Source: Candidatus Omnitrophota bacterium (GTDB taxonomy: Bacteria > Omnitrophota > Gorgyraeia > Zapsychrales > JANLHA01). From it: a stretch of 32,000 nucleotides of DNA. Below the pieces are notes generated by a model. It made no database searches, was not told where the DNA came from, and saw nothing but the letters and a program-made list of their open reading frames with translations. Below are positions 5,187 through 19,529 of the stretch, piece after piece (within the stretch, counting starts at the first letter, position 1; every line of letters starts with the position of its first letter). The translations under genes and the position numbers were made by a program. The stretch covers positions 510,001-542,000 of the forward strand of contig OY759724.1 of NCBI GenBank assembly GCA_963662715.1, written 5' to 3'.

Positions 5187-5999
5187 TCATGCGGAAGATT
5201 CAGGAGCCCGCGCGCTATCCGCAGCAAGATTGGTTAGCAGACTTGTTTTGTCCTTGCGGTTGCGGTACTTGAACTTGCTGAGCTTTTTGCGTGTTCCTTT
5301 GAGGTTGGAATCCCGAAATTTTTTTCGGAAAGTTCTTGTTAGCCATGTCTGTTCACTTCCTTTCTTCCTGTATTTTCTGAAAAGATCCTCATGATATCCG
5401 ATAATTTCAACAGCTCTTTTTACCGCAATATTTATGTTCCTAAAATCGTTGGCCAAGTCCATTGAAACTCCGTAAGCTTTAATAGCAAACTCACTTGAAA
5501 CGGGCGAATAAGATTTTATTTTTGATTGGCTTTGCACTCTTTGCACCTCTTGGGGGAAATAATTTTTTATTTCCTTACACAACATTATCTCCCGGTCCTT
5601 TTTTTCAGTAACACGGCTTGCAAACCCGAACAAACGGCAGAGTAAGGGCCGATAAGGATATACACTGCAATGCCCGCCATTTGAAAGCTGCTCTCGGGAA
5701 TAAAAAACACATCTGGCCCTCTCGTCCTCCGGATTTATTCGCTCCAGCCAATGATCAGCCTTTTTGCTTTGCAGCAAATAGACCGCTAGAGGCTGCACCT
5801 CGAGCACAGAAACACCTACGCAGGCATCACGGCAACAATTCCCGCATCCCGGAACGCAGCTTAGGGATGCCTTGGCCCGGAAGAGATCGATTTTCTTATC
5901 GATCTCGCGGAAAATATCCAACAAGGCAGTAACTTCTTTTTTTTTATAATCAGGCAAATAACTCAAATCCAGTTGTCCTTTTAATCCCAACATTTCCAT
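5187..5999 (-). CDS. YkgJ-family (UPF0153) cysteine-cluster protein with a basic C-terminal extension
   Basis: 270 aa. It has the Cys cluster CVPGCGNCCRDACVG and a later CSVYPYRPLLCRLFGF, as in the putative Fe-S/Zn-binding YkgJ family. The last 70 aa or so are Lys/Arg-rich (RKYRKKGSEQTWLTRTFRKKFRDSNLKGTRKKLSKFKYRNRKDK). Confidence 0.8.
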   Translation of the reverse strand: MEMLGLKGQLDLSYLPDYKKKEVTALLDIFREIDKKIDLFRAKASLSCVPGCGNCCRDACVGVSVLEVQPLAVYLLQSKKADHWLERINPEDERARCVFYSREQLSNGGHCSVYPYRPLLCRLFGFASRVTEKKDREIMLCKEIKNYFPQEVQRVQSQSKIKSYSPVSSEFAIKAYGVSMDLANDFRNINIAVKRAVEIIGYHEDLFRKYRKKGSEQTWLTRTFRKKFRDSNLKGTRKKLSKFKYRNRKDKTSLLTNLAADSARAPESSA

Positions 6000-7921: not shown

Positions 7922-8584
7922 TTAACGCCCTTCATTCAAAGTCACCGGGATATCAACTCTTAATCCCTGATAATGGGCCGTGATTGTTGTTGTCCCGGGG
8001 CTCTGAGGATACATCATCGGAGGATCTATAAAAAGCACGTCCGGATTCTCGGATGAGAACTGAAGCTCCGGGGATTTACTTAAATCCTTTTCCTGCCCGC
8101 TTTGGGTAACTCCAATGATTCTCGGGACAAGAGCAGGCGACATGTCGTTTAAGATCAAGGCCCCTTCAGGATATTCCAGCCGTTGATAAACTTCGTCATT
8201 CGCCAGATGAAATTTGATGTAGGAAATACCGGAGCTTCCCTCCGCCCCTCTTAACTTAACATGAAGACTCAGGACCACTTTGTTTGTGTCCGGGACGACG
8301 ACATCGACAATACCTGCCCCCTGGACAGGATATTTTTCCAAACCGCCGAGCTCTTTGGTATCCCATTTCAAATAACCTTCGGTAATCGTTTCCCCGGGCC
8401 ATGCGAGTTCAATCTGAATGGTTTGTCCAGGATGGACAATGTCATTCTCCCCCACGTTCAAAGCCTTAACTTCAATAGGGGCGGCCAGCCCCTGCCGAGG
8501 CATAAGAAACGCAAAGAAACAAAGGGCCAACAAGATGAAAAAAGGTGGCGTTCTAGCCTGATTTAAGGTGTATTGACAGGTCAT
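7922..8584 (-). CDS. secreted protein with a C-terminal bacterial Ig-like (Big_2-like) domain
   Basis: 220 aa. Signal peptide ...FFILLALCFFAFLMPRQGLAAP. The C-terminal segment SSENPDVLFIDPPMMYPQSPGTTTITAHYQGLRVDIPVTL resembles Big_2 domains. The ATG overlaps the upstream stop (ATGA at 8581-8584). Confidence 0.75.
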   Translation of the reverse strand: MTCQYTLNQARTPPFFILLALCFFAFLMPRQGLAAPIEVKALNVGENDIVHPGQTIQIELAWPGETITEGYLKWDTKELGGLEKYPVQGAGIVDVVVPDTNKVVLSLHVKLRGAEGSSGISYIKFHLANDEVYQRLEYPEGALILNDMSPALVPRIIGVTQSGQEKDLSKSPELQFSSENPDVLFIDPPMMYPQSPGTTTITAHYQGLRVDIPVTLNEGR

Positions 8585-10551
8585 TTCGCCAACTTCCTTT
8601 CCTTTAAGGATTCCCGTTTTTTACCTGAATTGATGGTCCCTAATAAAACCTTGGCTGCCTCCTCCGGACCTTTCTGTTCATATCCTGCTATCCCCAGCCG
8701 TGTTCTCATCTGTCCCACAAATATGTTTTGGGCAAAGAAGAGTTTAAAAAACTTCTTTGCGACTTTATCGTGTACTTCCCTGTATTGAGGCGGGCCAAAG
8801 ATATTCGCAAAATAAGAATGGACCAGCCCTGTAGAAGTGGTTGTCCCCTTACTCATGACAGCCCCTTCCTGAAATACATTCAGGGCTTTCTGGGCATCCT
8901 CAATCCGATCAATTAAAGGATGGTCAGCATTAATTTCTTCATAATTATTCGCATATAAAATAAAATCTATCTTATGTTCCCTGATAACACGGTCATAAGG
9001 CGTGATGGGCATAATAATCCGGGCATTCACCTTATTGGCACCCATAATAATGGCTCTGTCAATCTGGCCAAAAGCATAACCGGGCTTTAAATCATCCAAT
9101 CTTAAAAAAGCTCCGATTTCCGTGCCTATCCCTACAATCTCGCCTTTGTTATTTATTCTAATTGACCCCATGTCATCGGCAATAATATGCATGTCCTTGA
9201 TTTCGCCATAACCAATCTCACGGAACGCCTCTAATGTTTCCGACTTCCCTGCCCCCGTATCTCCGATAAGCAATATTGTCGCCTTCTTTTTTGTTTTCAA
9301 AGTTATATGCACTAAGGCTCCATGAAAAGGCAGGTGCCCTCTTTTCATCATTATGACATTATGCAACGTTAACACCATCTTTTTCAAGTAACCGAAATAG
9401 CCGAATTCCTCTTTTCCGGGAACCGCCGCAAAGAGTATTTTATTTCTTTCATCGTCATAAAAAACGGTCTGGTATTCCCCTAATCCTTTAACAGTCTTCT
9501 CGGGCACCCCGAAACAGTAAACAGCATCCGGCTTCCTTTTTAGGTCTTCCTCTTCTGCGAGCTGAAAAAGATTGGCCAGCGAATACCCCAATTCCACAAA
9601 AGTGTTGTGAAAATAAATTAAAATGAGCAGTTCTCCGACTTTTGCCGGATAACAGGCCCATTCTTTCTTCTTGATAGTCAATCTCTCCACAGGGTTTTCA
9701 TACACCCGCTCAAAAGCACCCGTTCTCTTATTCATGGGAGGGTTTAGAATCAGGGGAGGATACAGGAGGACCTGACGAATGACAGGAACTGTTTTAAGCT
9801 TATCATACTCACTCGCAGGAAAATCAATATCCATAGGGGCTGCGATAGCCGCCACTTCCGCGCCCGCCCGCACCTGGCGATAAATATTGGGATGAGCGCC
9901 GGTGATGTTTTCCGCAACATCACGATAAGCGGCCCTGACTAAATGGGTCAATTTTTCAATCGTTTCGTTAAAAACTCTATACGGGCGTCTCTCAATATCC
10001 GCATCTTCAGAAGAGCAGACAAGAAAACGGTCAAAGCTCCTCCAGTAATTGTAAAGATGCTCGACAAATTCATTGAACAACATCCTGTCTTCCAGGAAGG
10101 CCTCGGAGCCTTTCACAACTTTGGGGACTAAGTCCCCTCTCATTTTCGTCAAATAAAGGAATGTCTGAACAAGTGTATTTATTTTTGATTCATCAATTTT
10201 CTTTGAACGGAATATTCCCAGCAGTTCAGAGTCGTGCTCCTGCAAATCCTGTATGCAATTCTTCAATACACAAAGGAATAATTTGCTGGAAATCAACTCT
10301 TCCGATGTTTCGCAGATTCTGTTCCGGATCCTGATGATGATTTTGTTCTGATAAAATGCAAACTCGCCAAAATTCACGAAACCCCCTTTCACTTTTTTGT
10401 TCACGTTGAAGAAATTATAACAGATAATACCAATAATTAGAAACAAAAACCCAAACCCGGGAGGGACGAAAACCTGACGACAAATTTCACCCAAAAAAGC
10501 TAATTGGCTGGCAGAGGCATAAAAAATACGTTGCAAGCTATTGTCCCGCAA
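8581..10551 (-). CDS. membrane-anchored protein with an HPr-kinase/PEPCK-like P-loop domain, function unknown
   Basis: 656-aa ORF. HGALVHITLKTKKKATILLIGDTGAGKSETLEAF (P-loop at 9238-9264) and HIIADDMGSI (9166-9186) parallel the HprK C-terminal pattern HG.LV...G.L..G.SG.GKSE....DD. One N-terminal TM helix (FGFLFLIIGIICYNFF). The first canonical start is TTG at 10551, and there is no ATG in the first 136 codons or so, so the start is uncertain. Confidence 0.8.
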   Translation of the reverse strand: MRDNSLQRIFYASASQLAFLGEICRQVFVPPGFGFLFLIIGIICYNFFNVNKKVKGGFVNFGEFAFYQNKIIIRIRNRICETSEELISSKLFLCVLKNCIQDLQEHDSELLGIFRSKKIDESKINTLVQTFLYLTKMRGDLVPKVVKGSEAFLEDRMLFNEFVEHLYNYWRSFDRFLVCSSEDADIERRPYRVFNETIEKLTHLVRAAYRDVAENITGAHPNIYRQVRAGAEVAAIAAPMDIDFPASEYDKLKTVPVIRQVLLYPPLILNPPMNKRTGAFERVYENPVERLTIKKKEWACYPAKVGELLILIYFHNTFVELGYSLANLFQLAEEEDLKRKPDAVYCFGVPEKTVKGLGEYQTVFYDDERNKILFAAVPGKEEFGYFGYLKKMVLTLHNVIMMKRGHLPFHGALVHITLKTKKKATILLIGDTGAGKSETLEAFREIGYGEIKDMHIIADDMGSIRINNKGEIVGIGTEIGAFLRLDDLKPGYAFGQIDRAIIMGANKVNARIIMPITPYDRVIREHKIDFILYANNYEEINADHPLIDRIEDAQKALNVFQEGAVMSKGTTTSTGLVHSYFANIFGPPQYREVHDKVAKKFFKLFFAQNIFVGQMRTRLGIAGYEQKGPEEAAKVLLGTINSGKKRESLKERKLAK

Positions 10552-10634
10552 CGGATTTAAAATTCCTCTTCACCAGGGCCGCCACAAAAACTTATTGAAA
10601 ACAACTGATTCCAGATTATTTTTTATTTAACATA

Positions 10635-13600
10635 TTATTCTTTTTTCAGAAAATCGTTGTGGTAATCAAAAACTGATTGATTCGTAGATTGCTGAGTTCT
10701 ATCTTCGACTAACTTAAAAGCAGAAAACATGTCAATGGAATTACTGCCTGACCCCGGCCCCATCTTAAAAGCCTTTGTGTCAGAATTAGATGCACCGGAT
10801 AAAGACCGCGCTCCGGCAGTGTTCTCCTGCGTCCCGTTAACAAACTGCTGCACACTTACTACTGACTCAATAATATTATTCACATCTTCATTGGTGGTGT
10901 TGGTTCCGGTATCATCTACGACATCCGGCGCTGCTGTGATGGTCAATGTCCCGTTCGTATAACTCGCCGCATATCCCAAGAGAGACGTATACCCACCCGG
11001 GGTAATCACATAACCGCCGACATCGGTCGCGCCCTGGGAGGAGCCGGAATAGGAAACCGTCCCGCTGAAAGCTAATACAGCGGTATCCCCGTTAACAAAG
11101 TCGCTGGAAGTAACGCTGACTCCGTTGCCGCCGGAATACGCAGATCCGCTGTAAACCTGGCTATCGTCGTTAGCCGTGATGGTTACTGCTGGTTGTTCAC
11201 GATAAATGGCATAATTGCCGCTCCCCAAAGACGTGACATAATTGGCATCATCCTCATCACTGTTATAGCGGAAATTCCCGCTGGCGGAACCGATCAGCGC
11301 GGTCAACCCGGCGCTATCGCTGACATCTCCGGAATATAATGTTGCGCGCCCGCCGGAATCAACAGAAAGGCTTGCTCCGCTCACAACAATATCACCACCG
11401 GTGGCTGTTCCGGCCGCCGTACTTTTTCCCGCGTTTAACGTGATCGCGCTTGATCCTGTATTTGTTGTCGCAACCGCGCCGGTTAATGTCAAGTCGCCGG
11501 TTAAAGTCGCGATATCCACAGTACCTGTTGAATTCACTGCCCCAAGCGACATGGCATTACTATCAACTAATTGTAAATTCTGTGCGGACACCACCGAAAC
11601 CGCGCCGGTAAAGTCATTGTTTGTATTTGCCAATGTTACCGCGTTTGTCCCGGCGGTGATCGATGTGGTTCCCGTAACGTCCAACGCGCCGCTTTGCGTC
11701 AGCGCCCCTCCGGTCTGTAACATCAAATTCCCGGAAACCGTTGACGCACCCAGGTCCATCGCATCCGTATCCCGCAAACTCACATCGTTTCCGGAAACAA
11801 CGGACACCGCCCCGGCAAAATCATTCGATGCGTTAGTCAATGTAACATCATTAGCGGAACCAGCCGTAATCGTTGTCGTGCCTGTTACATCCAAGGCCGC
11901 GGTCTGGGTAATAGCGCCCGCGCTTGTCATCGCCAAGTTTGCCGCCGCGGTTACGGCCCCGCCGATGGTAATGGTTGAATTTGTCTGCAATGTCGTGCTG
12001 TCCTGAAAAGTCGGGGTTCCTCCTACCGTGATCGCGCCCGCTGTAGAGCTTCCGATAGTGACGCTGGAAAAACCGTCTTGAATATAACCCCATTCTGCCG
12101 CACTGATGTTGAGATCGCCGCTGCCGCCGGCCAGGCCGATCGTTCTTGCGGCAGAAGACGGCTTGATGGTCAATGTGCCGCTGCCGCCGGTTGCTGCAAT
12201 TGGCGCTGCCACGTCCATGAAGAGTGAATCAGCGACTATGGTAATCGCACTATTGGAACTTGTGACGCTTGAACCGGATTTCTCCCCAATATATGTCGCA
12301 CTCAAACGCATGTTTGAACCGCTAAGCGTAATGGCCCCGGTTGCTGACAACACGGCGTTCGTACTATCCGCGAGGGATAAATCATATCCTGAACCGGTAG
12401 TGCTGCCCGTAATCGTAATTCCACCGCTTCCTGTCGCTGAAATTGTCTGGCCCCAACCGATGTCAACACCATGGCTATTTGATGTCGCATTCGTTCCGGT
12501 GATCATTAATGTGTCGGCTGATGATGTCGTTATCGTGCCGGTATTGCCGCCCTCTTTCATTTCTACCCCTTTTACATCACTGACCACAACTGTAGCAGCA
12601 GCTTGACCATCAATAATAATTTGTCCCGATCCGGAATTGATATTTTGGTCAGCAATATACACACCCATGTGACCATTAGCGCTAGAGGTATCTACCGTTT
12701 TCCCGCTGATCTTTATATTTCCCCCGCTAGTAGTGAGGGTTGCATATTTCAAATAGACACCGGCATAGCGTTCACCTGTTTTTAAATAATCAGCCGCATA
12801 ATCATCGCCTACAGTAAGCGTGTCGGCTCCGCTGTAGGGCGTCCAGCTTGCTGTGCCATCGCCGCCGCCCATCCAGATGCCTCCACCATTAGTATTGATA
12901 GTTATCAAACTTCCGGAGGTGCCTGGCAATCCGATTCCTCCGATAGAATTCCCATCACTGTCCGCCCAAAATATCAAACTGGAACTTATCCCATCGCCAC
13001 CCGCCGCGGCACCGGTCAGGGTTGCACCGGCGTTCACCTCAATATTCCCGGCAGTCTTAAGCGTCAAGGGATCACTGTAAGAAACCGAAGCAGCCACCGT
13101 AATATCACCGGCCGAGGTGTTCCCGATAACAATACCGGAAAAACCACTCACAAAATTTGTTGAGAAATAACTGGCCGGAAGGTCAAGGTCATAACTGGTT
13201 GTCGCAAGCCCGATCGTTGTATCAGCCGTCCTTGGCTGAATCGTCAATGTTCCGGTACTTGCAAACCGGTCATTAGCATGAAGAGTCAGGGTATCTGCGT
13301 TCAATGTAATATTACTCGAAGAAGACGTCACATCCGTACCGCTTTTTTGTCCTAAATATCCGGGCTGATAAATATCCGTACTGCTGTTCACAGTGCTGCC
13401 TACTGTTCCGGTTATTGTGATCGCACCGCTGCTAGAAAGGACATTCCCCAAATTCCACATAACAACCCCGTTAGCTTGAGTGCTTCCTGTCCCGTCGGTT
13501 GTCCCGCCCGTTCCGGTAATGGTAATGCCCCCTCCGGCAGTTGTCTGAATTGTTCCCCGCAAATCCACTCCCATAGCCCATCCGGTATTATTTGTTGTGC

Positions 13601-15359
13601 TCGCGTCCCCGACAATCGTAATTGCGTCAGACTCCGTATTGGCAGATGTAATTTTTCCGCTAATCCATGAAATCCCTTGGGCATTAATTCCAGACGTCTC
13701 CTGAGAAACTCCATAAAGACTTATTTTCCCCGTACCACTATTGATATTTAACCCATCTCCGGAAGCCACATCGGCATAAATCCCCATATTAGTTTGCACC
13801 CCGAGCGCATCAAGAACATTACCAGTAGCCGCACCCTGACCGCGAATCGTGACATCTCCTCCCCCTGAAGTAATCGTCGTGCCCTGAAACCAAATGCCGC
13901 TTGTTTGACTGGCCACACCATCAAGTCCCTGGGCAAACCCGTCGGGTATACCATCACTGGCCGTCCCGCCATTGCTCCCGTCATCGGCGCCTCCCGCCAA
14001 AGTCACATCGCCACCGTTAGAAGTGATCGAAGAACTTGGCTTCATCCAGACCATCCCGCCGCCTGTCGCATCACTATCCGCCCAAAAAACAACATTAAGC
14101 TTGTTGCTGTCGCTTCTAGAGATGCTCATACCGGAATTCAGAAAAATGTTCCGATCAGCCTTAAACGTCAATGTCGTATCCGCCGACCCTCCGCTGACAC
14201 TGATATTATCATTAATCGTAATGTCGCCATCCGTCCCGCTGAATGAACCGTCACAGGAAGCGCCGGTGCAGCTACCTGTTCCGGCAGTGTCCAGCGTCAC
14301 ATTCGTTGTCCGTAAAGCAGTAGCGATTGTTGCCCCGGATATATCGTCTCCAGAGGAATCGACTGTAATATCAACCGGATCAATCAACCATTCACCGATT
14401 TCACCATCAATGGCATGCGTGGTGATTTTCACCGTATCCTTAATGTTTACCGTCGCCGCGCTTGTTTCAATAAACCCTCCGTCGCCGCCATTGGGTGCCG
14501 AGGCGTCCAGCGTGCCGTCAACGATCGTTTTACCGTATTCCATATCGGAAAGCAACAAGATGCGACCATTTCTTTCCGCGATTGTCTGCGCCTCGATCAC
14601 ACCTTCATTATTCACTACCGCGTTGGTAAGCTCATCCGCCGCCTCAGCCGTCATAAACACTACCCCGCCGTCGGCTTTGATCAATCCGCTATTTTCCGCC
14701 AATGCGTCAACAGCACCGTTATCAACAGTGAAATTAATCAATTGTTCATCGGCAAAAGCCAGATTAACTTTATCTGCGGCCACTAACGCAACTGTTCCCG
14801 CATCTGCTGAAATCGTCCCCTCGTTAACCACATGCGGGCTCAGAAAGGCTACATATCCACCAGTAATTTTCCCGTAATTCACCACATCCCCGGCCAATCC
14901 CGAACTTTCAAAAACGAAATTCCCCGACTGGAAATCAGCATCCGCCAAATCCAGCGACGAAGCCACCAGCCCTCCGACATCAACCTGCGAAGACTGTCCG
15001 AAGATGATGCCCGCGGAATTAAGCAGAAAAATCTGCCCATTAGCAGAAAGCCCTCCCAAAATCTGCGAAGGCGACGCATCGAAAATTCTGTTCACCGCGA
15101 CACTCGAACTGCCGGGCTGCACAAAGTCAACCCGGGCCTCAGCACCAATATTAAAAGTATCCCAATCCGCAACCATCGTATCAGAGTATTGATTGACCGT
15201 CATTTGACTATCCTGAGACGTTATCTTCCCGCTGCCGCTGGTGATTTCTCCCCCGGAAGGCAAAGCACCCGGCTCTATAGCCAAAACTAAAAATGACGTT
15301 AGGTGCAAAATAAAAATAATAATAAGCGGAATACTAAAAAGGCGATGAATGTGTTTCAT
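10635..15359 (-). CDS. tpsA: TpsA-type exoprotein (filamentous haemagglutinin family) with an N-terminal TPS domain
   Basis: 1574 aa with a Sec signal. The TPS/haemagglutination-activity domain covers roughly 14460-15270 (MTVNQYSDTMVADWDTFNIGAEARVDFVQPGSSSVAVNRIFDASPSQILGGLSANGQIFLLNSAGIIFG). More than 1000 aa of G/A/T/S-rich beta-helix-type repeats follow. The C-terminal MBG/YDG-like module reads TANDDSQVYSGSAYSG...GGYVITPGG...YTNGTLTITAAP. AAAGGAAAGGGG SD upstream. Confidence 0.93.
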   Translation of the reverse strand: MKHIHRLFSIPLIIIFILHLTSFLVLAIEPGALPSGGEITSGSGKITSQDSQMTVNQYSDTMVADWDTFNIGAEARVDFVQPGSSSVAVNRIFDASPSQILGGLSANGQIFLLNSAGIIFGQSSQVDVGGLVASSLDLADADFQSGNFVFESSGLAGDVVNYGKITGGYVAFLSPHVVNEGTISADAGTVALVAADKVNLAFADEQLINFTVDNGAVDALAENSGLIKADGGVVFMTAEAADELTNAVVNNEGVIEAQTIAERNGRILLLSDMEYGKTIVDGTLDASAPNGGDGGFIETSAATVNIKDTVKITTHAIDGEIGEWLIDPVDITVDSSGDDISGATIATALRTTNVTLDTAGTGSCTGASCDGSFSGTDGDITINDNISVSGGSADTTLTFKADRNIFLNSGMSISRSDSNKLNVVFWADSDATGGGMVWMKPSSSITSNGGDVTLAGGADDGSNGGTASDGIPDGFAQGLDGVASQTSGIWFQGTTITSGGGDVTIRGQGAATGNVLDALGVQTNMGIYADVASGDGLNINSGTGKISLYGVSQETSGINAQGISWISGKITSANTESDAITIVGDASTTNNTGWAMGVDLRGTIQTTAGGGITITGTGGTTDGTGSTQANGVVMWNLGNVLSSSGAITITGTVGSTVNSSTDIYQPGYLGQKSGTDVTSSSSNITLNADTLTLHANDRFASTGTLTIQPRTADTTIGLATTSYDLDLPASYFSTNFVSGFSGIVIGNTSAGDITVAASVSYSDPLTLKTAGNIEVNAGATLTGAAAGGDGISSSLIFWADSDGNSIGGIGLPGTSGSLITINTNGGGIWMGGGDGTASWTPYSGADTLTVGDDYAADYLKTGERYAGVYLKYATLTTSGGNIKISGKTVDTSSANGHMGVYIADQNINSGSGQIIIDGQAAATVVVSDVKGVEMKEGGNTGTITTSSADTLMITGTNATSNSHGVDIGWGQTISATGSGGITITGSTTGSGYDLSLADSTNAVLSATGAITLSGSNMRLSATYIGEKSGSSVTSSNSAITIVADSLFMDVAAPIAATGGSGTLTIKPSSAARTIGLAGGSGDLNISAAEWGYIQDGFSSVTIGSSTAGAITVGGTPTFQDSTTLQTNSTITIGGAVTAAANLAMTSAGAITQTAALDVTGTTTITAGSANDVTLTNASNDFAGAVSVVSGNDVSLRDTDAMDLGASTVSGNLMLQTGGALTQSGALDVTGTTSITAGTNAVTLANTNNDFTGAVSVVSAQNLQLVDSNAMSLGAVNSTGTVDIATLTGDLTLTGAVATTNTGSSAITLNAGKSTAAGTATGGDIVVSGASLSVDSGGRATLYSGDVSDSAGLTALIGSASGNFRYNSDEDDANYVTSLGSGNYAIYREQPAVTITANDDSQVYSGSAYSGGNGVSVTSSDFVNGDTAVLAFSGTVSYSGSSQGATDVGGYVITPGGYTSLLGYAASYTNGTLTITAAPDVVDDTGTNTTNEDVNNIIESVVSVQQFVNGTQENTAGARSLSGASNSDTKAFKMGPGSGSNSIDMFSAFKLVEDRTQQSTNQSVFDYHNDFLKKE
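11478..11897 (-). repeat. two tandem degenerate 210-nt (70-aa) repeats inside tpsA
   Basis: ALDVTGTTTITAGSANDVTLTNASNDFAGAVSVVSGNDVSLRDTDAMDLGA... is followed 70 aa later by ALDVTGTTSITAGTNAVTLANTNNDFTGAVSVVSAQNLQLVDSNAMSLGA.... The unit starts map to 11897 and 11687. The copies have diverged at the DNA level. Confidence 0.6.
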
Positions 15360-15374
15360 TTTTGCCCCTTTCCT

Positions 15375-17099
15375 TTAAAACCATATTGTAGCTTGAATCC
15401 AGAAACGCCCGTCAGGTGAACGGTTATCAGCATCTTTATCAAAGACATCTCGTCCGATGTTCTTTCCTACTTTATGCGCATAAGAACATTGAATCCGATA
15501 CATATTACTTTTTTCAAAATTGACACCCAGGCCAATACCCGTCAGCCAATAATGGTTGCGGCCGGAAATATTGGTTACAGAATTTGTCCAAGTATCCTTA
15601 TGCAAGGTGACATGCCCGGCGTCAAAGAATCCGACCAACTGTGTCCTCAGCCATCTCTGCATAAAAGGCAATTCCAGACGTTTTTCCATCGTCAAAATAT
15701 GGCCCTCATCACCGGAAGCTTCGCCGACAGGGTATGCACGGACACCGCTAGGCCCGCCCAAGAGTATCTTTTGCGAAGAATCCAGATTACAGCCGGAAAA
15801 CTGTCCCCTGGCAGAAAAAAATGCTGAAATATTTTTACCCACACGCTGCAAACGCGCCAAGGAATAAGTTGTTTTGAAAAACTTCCCTGCCGTTCCGGCT
15901 CCGGAATCGTCACTGGACTTCCCGTCTGTTATATCGACATCGCCGGGGTATAAACCGACAGAAAAACTGGTCAAACCTCCACCGAAAAACGTGTCATAAA
16001 AATTTCCGGAAAAATTAATATTACCCGCTAAAACGTTTCTATCACTTGTCACCGTGCCATCCAACTTATCTTCTAAAGAATAATGACTAAGGCCTAATCC
16101 CAACCATAAACTCGTCTTTTGAGTCCGTTTAAGCGGATATTTGACATCCCCTGTCCAGGTGTTCGCATACCCTTTGGAGCGCAAATCTTTCAATTTCCCT
16201 CCAAGCTCGTATCTAAGTCCGCTATAAGATAAATTCAAAAAAGTACCCGTTGCGCCGACCGGCAGAGAAAAATTCATCTTACCCTGATGCAATTCCGCCG
16301 CGTTTACATACATTAAAGAAAACATGTCCCCTTTACCCAGAACATCATACAACCCCACCCTGGCTGTCCGGCGAAAACTGCCCGTATACCGGTTACCAAA
16401 ATTGTCCCCTGACAAGACAGCCGAACCCCAATGCCCTTCTTTTGCCTGAATCGTAATTTTTGAAGTTCCCGGCGTCTGGCCTTTATCCAGATACGCCTTT
16501 GCTAATATCCCCGGCAAATCATTAATCAACAGTACGGCCCGCTCCAAATCCCGCAAATAAATTGGTTTATCTGCAACCAGAGACTTAGCAGCTATTTGTT
16601 CCAGGAATGCATGATCGATCCTGCATGACTTATCGACAACCACGTTCACCTGGCCTTCTAACTTACCAACCATAATATTAATCTTAAGGACTCCGTCAGT
16701 AATATCTTGTTGCGGCAAATATGCCCGTGACAACAGATGCCCTTTTTCTTCTCTAAGATATTTGGTCAACAATTTGGCGATCATCTGAATCTGACTAAAA
16801 CTCAATTCTTTATTGAGATAAGGATTAACAATTTCGTCCAACTCCGAGACAGACGCCAATCCTTCATAGCCGGAAAACTCAATTTTCTTTACAGTAACTT
16901 TTACATTATTATCAGTTATCAATTCCGGCTCTGTTTGAATTTTGTCCTCAGGGAAAGAGGACGGGACATTCTGAACGTCTTGTTGCATTTGTTGGTTCAA
17001 AATTGATCCTGAATCGGGGTTGGCAGCCAGAGCGTTAGGGAGGATTAAAAAAATTGTCGCCAGTAATACCAGAATATATTTAGAAATTCTTTTTGCCAT
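15375..17099 (-). CDS. tpsB: TpsB outer-membrane transporter (ShlB/FhaC/HecB family, POTRA plus Omp85-type barrel)
   Basis: 574 aa from the ATG at 17099; the ORF track extends 12 codons further to a non-ATG start. Signal peptide MAKRISKYILVLLATIFLILPNALA. POTRA-like region VKKIEFSGYEGL...LKINIMVGKLEGQVNV. The barrel ends in ...RFWIQATIWF. The gap to tpsA is 15 nt. Confidence 0.92.
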   Translation of the reverse strand: MAKRISKYILVLLATIFLILPNALAANPDSGSILNQQMQQDVQNVPSSFPEDKIQTEPELITDNNVKVTVKKIEFSGYEGLASVSELDEIVNPYLNKELSFSQIQMIAKLLTKYLREEKGHLLSRAYLPQQDITDGVLKINIMVGKLEGQVNVVVDKSCRIDHAFLEQIAAKSLVADKPIYLRDLERAVLLINDLPGILAKAYLDKGQTPGTSKITIQAKEGHWGSAVLSGDNFGNRYTGSFRRTARVGLYDVLGKGDMFSLMYVNAAELHQGKMNFSLPVGATGTFLNLSYSGLRYELGGKLKDLRSKGYANTWTGDVKYPLKRTQKTSLWLGLGLSHYSLEDKLDGTVTSDRNVLAGNINFSGNFYDTFFGGGLTSFSVGLYPGDVDITDGKSSDDSGAGTAGKFFKTTYSLARLQRVGKNISAFFSARGQFSGCNLDSSQKILLGGPSGVRAYPVGEASGDEGHILTMEKRLELPFMQRWLRTQLVGFFDAGHVTLHKDTWTNSVTNISGRNHYWLTGIGLGVNFEKSNMYRIQCSYAHKVGKNIGRDVFDKDADNRSPDGRFWIQATIWF

Positions 17100-17155
17100 A
17101 TTTTCCCTTTCTTTATATATCCCCAATACAGCCAAGGTTATATGATCAATACTTC

Positions 17156-18980: not shown

Positions 18981-19529
18981 TTATCTCTTTATCAAACGTG
19001 TCCCGGTCTCGCTAATCGCCCGGACATCCTCGATAGTATAAAATGCATTGGGATTAAACTCTTTGACTTTCTCAATCAAATGAGGAATTTCTGAACGCCG
19101 AACAATTGTGTATATAATATCTACTTTGCCACTTAGACCATCGCCTTTTACAGTGGTAACTCGATACCCATGCTTTTTGAGAAATTCAATTAGACTCGAG
19201 GCATCACGACGGGTGATAATTCTGAGGATTTGAAACCCTATCGCCAATTTCTCTTCAATAATCATGCCAACATAAGTTCCCGTCGCGAATCCTCCGGCAA
19301 AACTAACGTAACAGACAGGGTTCGACAAATTAATAATAATCTGCCTGAAAGCAAGCAGCCAAATGAGCACCTGAAAAAATCCGATCACCGGGGCAAGAAG
19401 CTTTTTACTTCTGTGAAGCAACATAATCCTCACAGTATCCATAGAAACGTCGCAAATTCTAGCCAGAAAAATCCATAGCGGCAGCAAAAACCATTGATGA
19501 AACAAACTATTATTACCCAACAAGTCCAT
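18981..19529 (-). CDS. UPF0316 / DUF2179-domain membrane protein
   Basis: 182 aa. The TM part (ARICDVSMDTVRIMLL...) is followed by a C-terminal alpha/beta domain (FLKKHGYRVTTVKGDGLSGKVDIIYTIVRRSEIPHLIEKVKEFNPNAFYTIEDVR), as in UPF0316 proteins. Confidence 0.75.
   Translation of the reverse strand: MDLLGNNSLFHQWFLLPLWIFLARICDVSMDTVRIMLLHRSKKLLAPVIGFFQVLIWLLAFRQIIINLSNPVCYVSFAGGFATGTYVGMIIEEKLAIGFQILRIITRRDASSLIEFLKKHGYRVTTVKGDGLSGKVDIIYTIVRRSEIPHLIEKVKEFNPNAFYTIEDVRAISETGTRLIKR

Follow-up and report, generated by a model that had tools for sequence, protein, structure and literature searches.

A phosphoenolpyruvate carboxykinase-superfamily protein encoded next to a two-partner secretion operon in an Omnitrophota bacterium

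Gene structure and start codon

The stretch of DNA analyzed here (the window; 32,000 nucleotides, positions 510,001 to 542,000 of contig OY759724.1 in assembly GCA_963662715.1) belongs to Candidatus Omnitrophota bacterium and carries on its minus strand a gene for a 598-amino-acid protein of the phosphoenolpyruvate carboxykinase (PEPCK) superfamily (Table 1). The gene lies between a two-partner secretion (TPS) operon and a 220-amino-acid open reading frame (ORF). An earlier note, made from the sequence alone, had described it as a TTG-initiated ORF of 656 amino acids (8581-10551, minus strand) encoding a membrane-anchored kinase similar to HPr kinase/phosphorylase (HprK/P). That mechanical ORF does exist in the window as described; the gene model and the protein derived from it are different.

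The start codons of 17 out of 17 aligned homologs (59-87% identity, 582-602 amino acids) coincide with codon 59 of the 656-amino-acid ORF, an in-frame GTG at 10377-10375, and their N-termini, of the form M-x-x-G/x-E/x-F, align to this residue. Nearly all of the best 120 homologs are 582-602 amino acids long and cover approximately 89% of the 656-amino-acid query, while stop codons break the frame upstream of the ATG in the closest homologs. Because all 17 aligned homologs begin there, GTG 10377 is the true start and the protein has 598 amino acids (8581-10377). Further in-frame GTG triplets occur at codons 50 and 54; thus, canonical starts other than the TTG at 10551 do precede codon 137, contrary to what had been claimed. 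A C-terminal tail of approximately 12 residues, unique to the window protein, creates the overlap with the 220-amino-acid ORF (7922-8584).

The extension between TTG and GTG contains a terminator-like hairpin located 82 nucleotides past the tpsA stop codon, with a folding energy of -20.7 kcal/mol (z = -4.74; none of 200 shuffled sequences was equally stable) and a T-run that reads TATTTTTTAT. The presumed TTG start falls within the stem of this hairpin. Upstream DNA was compared with that of the two closest homologs for which it is readable (79% and 87% protein identity): TGnTATAAT is invariant in both, its distance from the start codon included, and a GAAAGG/GAAGGG sequence is aligned with the ribosome-binding site of the window. 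These elements suggest that a promoter of its own, situated past a putative tpsA terminator, drives transcription of the gene.

The 19-residue Kyte-Doolittle maximum is 2.21 in the extension (residue 27 of the 656-amino-acid ORF) versus 1.31 in the 598-amino-acid protein, in which neither a signal peptide nor a transmembrane segment was found. The supposed transmembrane helix (residues 33-48 of the 656-amino-acid ORF), the sole hydrophobic segment of that ORF, lies wholly inside the untranslated stretch. Thus, the protein is soluble and the membrane anchor proposed in the earlier note is an artifact of the misplaced start.

Table 1. Features of the PEPCK-like gene and of its surroundings in the window (residue numbers refer to the 598-amino-acid protein)
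Feature	Position	Strand	Description
PEPCK-superfamily coding sequence	8581..10377	-	GTG start, TGA stop, 598 amino acids; translation checked
Family-specific N-terminal module, residues 1-230	9688..10377	-	Beta-hairpin and confident helical bundle (25-160)
YFGYLKKM, residues 327-334	9376..9399	-	E. coli PEPCK Y207-G-G-E-M-K212-K213 by hhalign
PFHGAL, residues 350-355	9313..9330	-	H352 = PEPCK H232 = HprK H140 by hhalign
P-loop/kinase-1a GDTGAGKSE, residues 372-380	9238..9264	-	K378 = PEPCK K254, S379 = T255
Kinase-2 strand IIADDMG, residues 398-404	9166..9186	-	D401/D402 = PEPCK D268/D269
GTEIGAFLR, residues 418-426	9100..9126	-	E420/G422 = PEPCK E282/G284, R426 = K288
NARIIMP, residues 451-457	9007..9027	-	N451/R453 = PEPCK N331/R333; no aligned HprK counterpart
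MSKGTTTSTG, residues 508-517	8827..8856	-	Conserved loop aligned with PEPCK AKLAGTERG segment; low model confidence
False N-terminal extension of mechanical ORF (58 residues, 174 nucleotides)	10378..10551	-	5' untranslated/intergenic DNA; absent from all aligned homologs
Intrinsic-terminator-like hairpin (10553-10529) and T-run (10528-10519)	10519..10553	-	Pattern scan, RNA fold
Putative extended -10 promoter element TGTTATAAT	10414..10422	-	Approximately 36 nucleotides upstream of GTG start
Ribosome-binding site GAAAGGGGG	10382..10390	-	Sequence, preceding GTG
tpsA, 1574 amino acids	10635..15359	-	TPS domain and DUF5649 repeats
tpsB	15375..17135	-	POTRA_2 and ShlB domains
220-amino-acid ORF	7922..8584	-	Signal-peptide-like N-terminus; ATG overlaps PEPCK-like stop (ATGA, 8581-8584)

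Fold and superfamily placement

An AlphaFold2 model of the protein built on 30 homologs reached a predicted local distance difference test score (pLDDT) of 76.4 and a predicted template modeling score of 0.78. When this model was compared with the PDB using Foldseek, the top 50 matches were all PEPCKs of the ATP or the GTP type (E-values between 5e-10 and 4e-8, probability 1.00, 390-530 aligned columns). Profile comparison relied on three alignments, made from 45 diverse full-length members of the family (identity as low as 26%; the same set over which residue conservation was counted), 8 annotated ATP-PEPCKs and 6 annotated HprK/Ps. With hhalign, the family profile aligned with ATP-PEPCK over 314 columns (query 231-578, E. 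coli 115-468; probability 93.4%, E 2.4e-7) and with HprK over 80 columns comprising the HG motif, the P-loop and the DD strand (query 321-411; probability 91.1%, E 1e-6); the Y..KK and N-x-R motifs have no aligned HprK counterpart. An alignment with the single E. coli Pck sequence, in which HG and DD were mis-registered (65% probability), was superseded by the 8-sequence PEPCK alignment. Thus, the fold class is PEPCK-type and the architecture is PEPCK-like rather than HprK-like, because the PEPCK alignment extends over 314 columns and includes the Y-x-G-x-x-K-K and N-x-R motifs, against 80 columns for HprK.

Among Pfam models, PEPCK_ATP is the commonest weak match in the family (28 of 45 members, best E 8.6e-6), and Hpr_kinase_C weakly matches 7 of 45 (best E 7.7e-5). 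For the window protein, the best NCBIfam match is the PEPCK subfamily model NF006821 (E 2.7e-4, score 19.7 versus a cut-off of 369), while Hpr_kinase_C scores 13 bits (E 0.075) versus a cut-off of 33.3. Sequence searches of the PDB, with either the protein or the 30-sequence profile, returned ABC-type Walker-A noise alone and are uninformative on the fold.

The earlier note had recognized an HprK/PEPCK-superfamily P-loop core and had suggested profile-profile and fold searches as checks. The core is confirmed by the fold match and by the conserved GKSE and DD residues, and since the predicted model matches PEPCK structures the superfamily is not refuted. The narrower 'HprK-like' label holds for the shared HG/GKSE/DD core; it does not extend to the whole architecture.

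Conserved motifs and putative active site

Residues equivalent to those of PEPCK were identified from the profile alignment, not from structural superposition. The P-loop (K378 in 44/45 members, S379 in 41/45, E380 in 43/45) and the kinase-2 strand (D401 in 41/45, D402 in 42/45) lie where the earlier note had placed them, with the HGALV sequence 20 residues upstream of the P-loop; the Walker A lysine, the GKSE sequence and the DD pair, whose conservation it had proposed to check, are all retained. H352 and G353 of the PFHGAL motif are present in 38/45 and 42/45 members. Conservation is similarly high at Y327 (43/45), K332 (43/45) and K333 (37/45) of YFGYLKKM, at E420 (44/45), G422 (45/45) and R426 (40/45) of GTEIGAFLR, and at N451 (41/45) and R453 (40/45) of NARIIMP. 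Overall, the equivalents of PEPCK Y207, K212/K213, H232, K254/T255, D268/D269, K288 and N331/R333 are kept in 37-44 of the 45 members, and G329 and T374 are further aligned with E. coli G209 and S250.

In PEPCK, K213, H232 and D269 bind Mn2+, K254 and T255 bind Mg-ATP, and R65, Y207 and R333 bind oxaloacetate/phosphoenolpyruvate (PEP) and CO2. Most of the equivalent E. coli positions are invariant in the 8-sequence ATP-PEPCK alignment, and the structures matched in the fold search include the PEPCK mutants Y207F, G209S, K212C, K213S, S250A, D269N and R65Q. Three of the best-conserved segments of the window protein (residues 207-219, 426-458 and 506-526) have the lowest confidence in the model, with a pLDDT below 50, as mobile active-site loops would; they may be such loops, with 506-526 perhaps acting as a lid.

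The N-terminal module

PEPCK profile homology starts at residue 231. The preceding region was already singled out in the earlier note as a long N-terminal part matching nothing recognizable; it is real and indeed has no matches, but it comprises approximately 230 residues of the true protein instead of approximately 380. Modeled in isolation, residues 1-262 gave a pLDDT of 66.8, with the helical bundle at 85-95. The module contains three near-invariant arginines, R117 (44/45), R152 (43/45) and R167 (40/45), and a conserved N216-K-R218-x-G220 loop in which R218 is found in 38/45 members. The N-terminal domain of E. coli PEPCK supplies the substrate-binding residue R65, within the TGRSPKDK motif. 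The N-K-R-x-G loop is a candidate for the role of R65.

Family distribution and annotation

A search of a collection of 5.8 billion proteins identified 3754 relatives at E <= 1e-3 among 8000 candidates scored, and clustering at 50% identity yields 590 representatives of the family. A relative occurs in at least 577 GTDB species genomes (one genome per species scanned). The best 80 of these genomes, at 54-66% identity, include Omnitrophota, Bacteroidales, Chloroflexota, Spirochaetota, KSB1, Neomarinimicrobiota, Thermodesulfobacteriota, Sporomusaceae, Smithella, Syntrophorhabdus and others. Among named relatives, the nearest comes from Candidatus Aceula meridiana (Omnitrophota); the family is also carried by cultured organisms such as Atrimonas thermophila, Ilyobacter polytropus, Petrotoga species and Limosilactobacillus fermentum.

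Source databases label the members inconsistently as PEP carboxykinase, ATPase, EcfA2 (JGI, some members) or hypothetical protein. A literature search for the family found nothing, no solved structure was found, and a 'PEP carboxykinase-like' mention in a paper on a heliobacterial genome could not be linked to it. The family is thus large, widespread among anaerobes and strongly conserved, and is already loosely labeled 'PEPCK' by automatic pipelines while being uncharacterized.

Genomic context

ORFs were called and clustered in 85 loci (8 kb to either side of the gene), the window included. No homolog of TpsA, TpsB, the 220-amino-acid protein or the TPR-lipoprotein was found in the 84 other loci, and there are no TPS genes beside the homologs of 87%, 79% and 78% identity. 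No neighbor is conserved across phyla in the 85 loci; synteny is lineage-specific alone and points to no functional partner. Recurrent neighbors in Bacteroidales (holA, 2-oxoacid dehydrogenase E1, AlgH, ApbE and PNP) are unrelated housekeeping genes. Across the 85 loci there is no conserved phosphotransferase system (PTS) or lgt neighbor. Neighbors typical of ribosomally synthesized and post-translationally modified peptide (RiPP) or lasso-peptide clusters are likewise absent, and the HprK-related RiPP kinase models of NCBIfam gave no match at E <= 1. A central-metabolic enzyme would be expected to lack a conserved operon partner, as is the case here. The gene stands alone as a housekeeping gene, and its position after tpsBA is accidental.

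In the window itself, the TPS operon (10635-17135, minus strand) ends at the terminator-like hairpin (10553-10519). On the other side, a AAGGAAAGGAAG stretch stands just upstream of the start of the 220-amino-acid ORF, which belongs to no Pfam family; this stretch and the ATGA overlap suggest, from the sequence, that its translation may be coupled to that of the PEPCK-like gene.

Several other genes recur near members of the family. A CxxCxxCC gene (PF03692, YkgJ-like) directly precedes the PEPCK-like gene, in the same orientation, in three further Omnitrophota genomes (locus L071, 7300-7941; L010, 1958-2617; L061, 7358-7993), and these three copies are 31-34% identical to a copy in the window (5187-5999, minus strand) that lies 2.6 kb downstream of the PEPCK-like gene; the pairing may be a lineage-specific linkage. 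A gene for a DUF5698/DUF2179 membrane protein occurs 8.6 kb upstream in the window (18981-19529, minus strand), 3 nucleotides downstream in one Omnitrophota metagenome-assembled genome (L013, 9776-10366) and 2.1 kb upstream in Atrimonas thermophila (L001, 5280-5861). A protein of approximately 830 amino acids with GH57 and DUF3536 domains, related to glycogen/alpha-glucan metabolism, is encoded 61-148 nucleotides downstream in four loci (L063, 9906-12449, and three others). In Candidatus Aceula meridiana, which carries the 79% homolog, a beta-class carbonic anhydrase gene follows 104 nucleotides downstream on the same strand (L004, 9871-10269). Such a neighbor would fit a reaction using CO2 or bicarbonate, in this single case.

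Proposed function and alternative explanations

The protein is probably a cytoplasmic, nucleotide-dependent and metal-dependent (two-metal) phosphotransferase that acts on a small molecule with PEP/oxaloacetate-type chemistry. Residues from approximately 231 to 585 would form the PEPCK-type architecture, with Mg-nucleotide bound at the P-loop (K378, S379) and K333, H352 and D402 presumably holding the second divalent metal, which is Mn2+ in PEPCK. The phosphoryl group would pass between the nucleotide and a small carboxylate or enolate, positioned by Y327 and R453 and probably also by the N-terminal arginines R117, R152, R167 and R218, while the flexible, conserved loops would probably fold over the active site. 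The most likely chemistry would be that of a PEP/oxaloacetate-type (carboxy)kinase. Within this reading, we regard a true PEPCK isoenzyme and a related reaction on another small acid as about equally probable.

Several observations weigh against a PEPCK-type function. The window protein stays below the cut-off of every curated Pfam and NCBIfam model, PEPCK_ATP (PF01293) included (E 0.006, 15.8-16.1 bits versus a cut-off of 26.5), and identity to ATP-PEPCKs is 11-17%. The Foldseek TM-scores to PEPCK structures are just 0.35-0.49, with root-mean-square deviations of 7-10 A. The GxxGxGKSE P-loop and the HG/DD spacing are nearer to HprK, with 30% identity over 80 columns compared with 18% for PEPCK. 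Between the N-terminal 260 residues and positions 1-150 of PEPCK, hhalign found no similarity (probability 0.1%), and the isolated module had no fold match in the PDB (best Foldseek E 0.82, probability <=0.14), although the model is partly confident and remote similarity in its beta part is possible. Since the module replaces the R65-bearing segment of PEPCK, homology cannot settle the substrate. Moreover, many Bacteroidales have a canonical PckA, and co-occurrence of the two proteins would favor a distinct function over an isoenzyme.

The alternative put forward in the earlier note, a membrane-anchored HprK-like protein-serine kinase acting on the Ser/Thr-rich TpsA or on an Ig-like secreted neighbor, is highly improbable. 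It draws on the match of the HG/GxxGxGKSE/ADD core to HprK and on the position of the gene between tpsA and a secreted 220-amino-acid protein whose start overlaps its stop. However, the start was misplaced and the anchor does not exist; the putative targets are exported whereas the enzyme has neither signal peptide nor transmembrane segment, a topologically awkward arrangement; and a terminator-like hairpin and a -10 element of its own separate the gene from tpsA. Homology to HprK is limited to 80 columns, motifs exclusive to PEPCK occur, and the HprK-related RiPP kinase models do not match. The proposed targets are not conserved neighbors (0/84 loci), and the kinase idea has no comparative support because no TPS gene accompanies the family in other loci. 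A regulatory rather than metabolic enzyme, namely an HprK/P-like kinase/phosphorylase of a cytoplasmic protein, is somewhat less implausible, yet we still consider it unlikely. The GKSE P-loop and HG motif are closer in sequence to HprK than to PEPCK, Hpr_kinase_C is a weak match in part of the family, and the large N-terminal module might serve in protein recognition. Nevertheless, the equivalents of the PEPCK small-molecule and Mn-site residues (Y207, K212/K213, N331/R333) are conserved and have no aligned HprK counterparts, the whole-length fold matches are all PEPCKs, and no conserved neighbor is available for phosphorylation; the hprK genes retrieved, by contrast, adjoin lgt or PTS genes.

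A generic P-loop ATPase (an ABC/ECF-type subunit, as the JGI label EcfA2 on some members implies) or a non-catalytic relic is very unlikely. Weak ABC P-loop matches do occur (ABC_tran E 0.066, ABCB1 E 0.002), but they span just approximately 60 residues around Walker A; the top 50 fold matches are PEPCKs alone; no ABC signature, Q-loop or partner permease is conserved nearby; and many polar residues beyond the P-loop are very strongly conserved, which points to a specific active site.

More speculatively, the family may represent a fourth, structurally distinct PEPCK-fold class that combines an HprK-like P-loop, a PEPCK-like metal and substrate site and a new N-terminal helical module. Being more than 50% identical across many anaerobic phyla, it could catalyze an unassigned phosphoryl-transfer or (de)carboxylation reaction of central metabolism rather than being a duplicate of PckA. 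We regard this proposal as tentative, possible rather than probable.

For the window, a false lead is removed, with no membrane kinase and no evidence for phosphorylation of TpsA, and the gene model is corrected from TTG 10551 to GTG 10377. More broadly, a widespread, strongly conserved enzyme family of anaerobes is flagged, whose members go by several labels ('PEPCK', 'ATPase', 'EcfA2') and for which there is no curated model. Should the protein prove to be a genuine PEPCK, reconstructions of metabolism in Omnitrophota, Atribacterota, Thermotogota and others that use standard models may overlook or wrongly score the PEP-oxaloacetate node; should it not, the 'PEPCK' annotations are erroneous and there is a conserved reaction still to be discovered. 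Its cultured hosts (Petrotoga, Ilyobacter, Limosilactobacillus fermentum) make the function directly testable.

Comparison with known systems

Pfam DUF4914 (a profile of approximately 610 amino acids), maybe another P-loop family of the superfamily, weakly matches 17 of the 45 members (best E 5.6e-4). It was rejected as the identity of the family: in the single member inspected, P0132, the match spans a P-loop stretch of approximately 65 residues and is below the cut-off. Genes annotated as 'phosphoenolpyruvate carboxykinase (ATP)' in haloarchaea (locus L095, a Halarchaeum plasmid; H28-H30) encode proteins 23-27% identical to E. coli Pck; they are another divergent PEPCK lineage, unrelated to the window.

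HprK/P (Pfam PF07475/PF02603) shares with the window protein the H-G...G-x-S/T-G-x-G-K-S-E...A-D-D core. However, HprK has approximately 310 amino acids and a MurE/F-like N-terminal domain, whereas the window protein has 598 amino acids and no Hpr_kinase_N match. The homology does not span the whole HprK catalytic domain of approximately 170 amino acids but stops after the DD strand. The C-terminal subdomain of PEPCK is missing from HprK, as are the N-x-R and Y..KK motifs, and hprK adjoins lgt or PTS genes while this family has no PTS neighbor. GTP-PEPCKs (Pfam PF00821/PF17297; PDB 2QZY, 4WIE) are among the top fold matches (E approximately 3e-9, 430-470 columns) but show no match at the sequence level.

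ATP-PEPCK (PckA, EC 4.1.1.49; Pfam PF01293; PDB 1AQ2, 2PXZ, 1XKV) differs in its N-terminal part, where approximately 230 unrelated residues stand in place of the R65-bearing region, and in its P-loop, which reads GKTT compared with GKSE here. It nevertheless provides the best whole-length structural matches and the 314-column alignment, and it shares with the window protein a similar length, a stand-alone gene, the order of the motifs and the equivalents of Y207, K212/K213, H232, S250, K254/T255, D268/D269, E282/G284, K288 and N331/R333.

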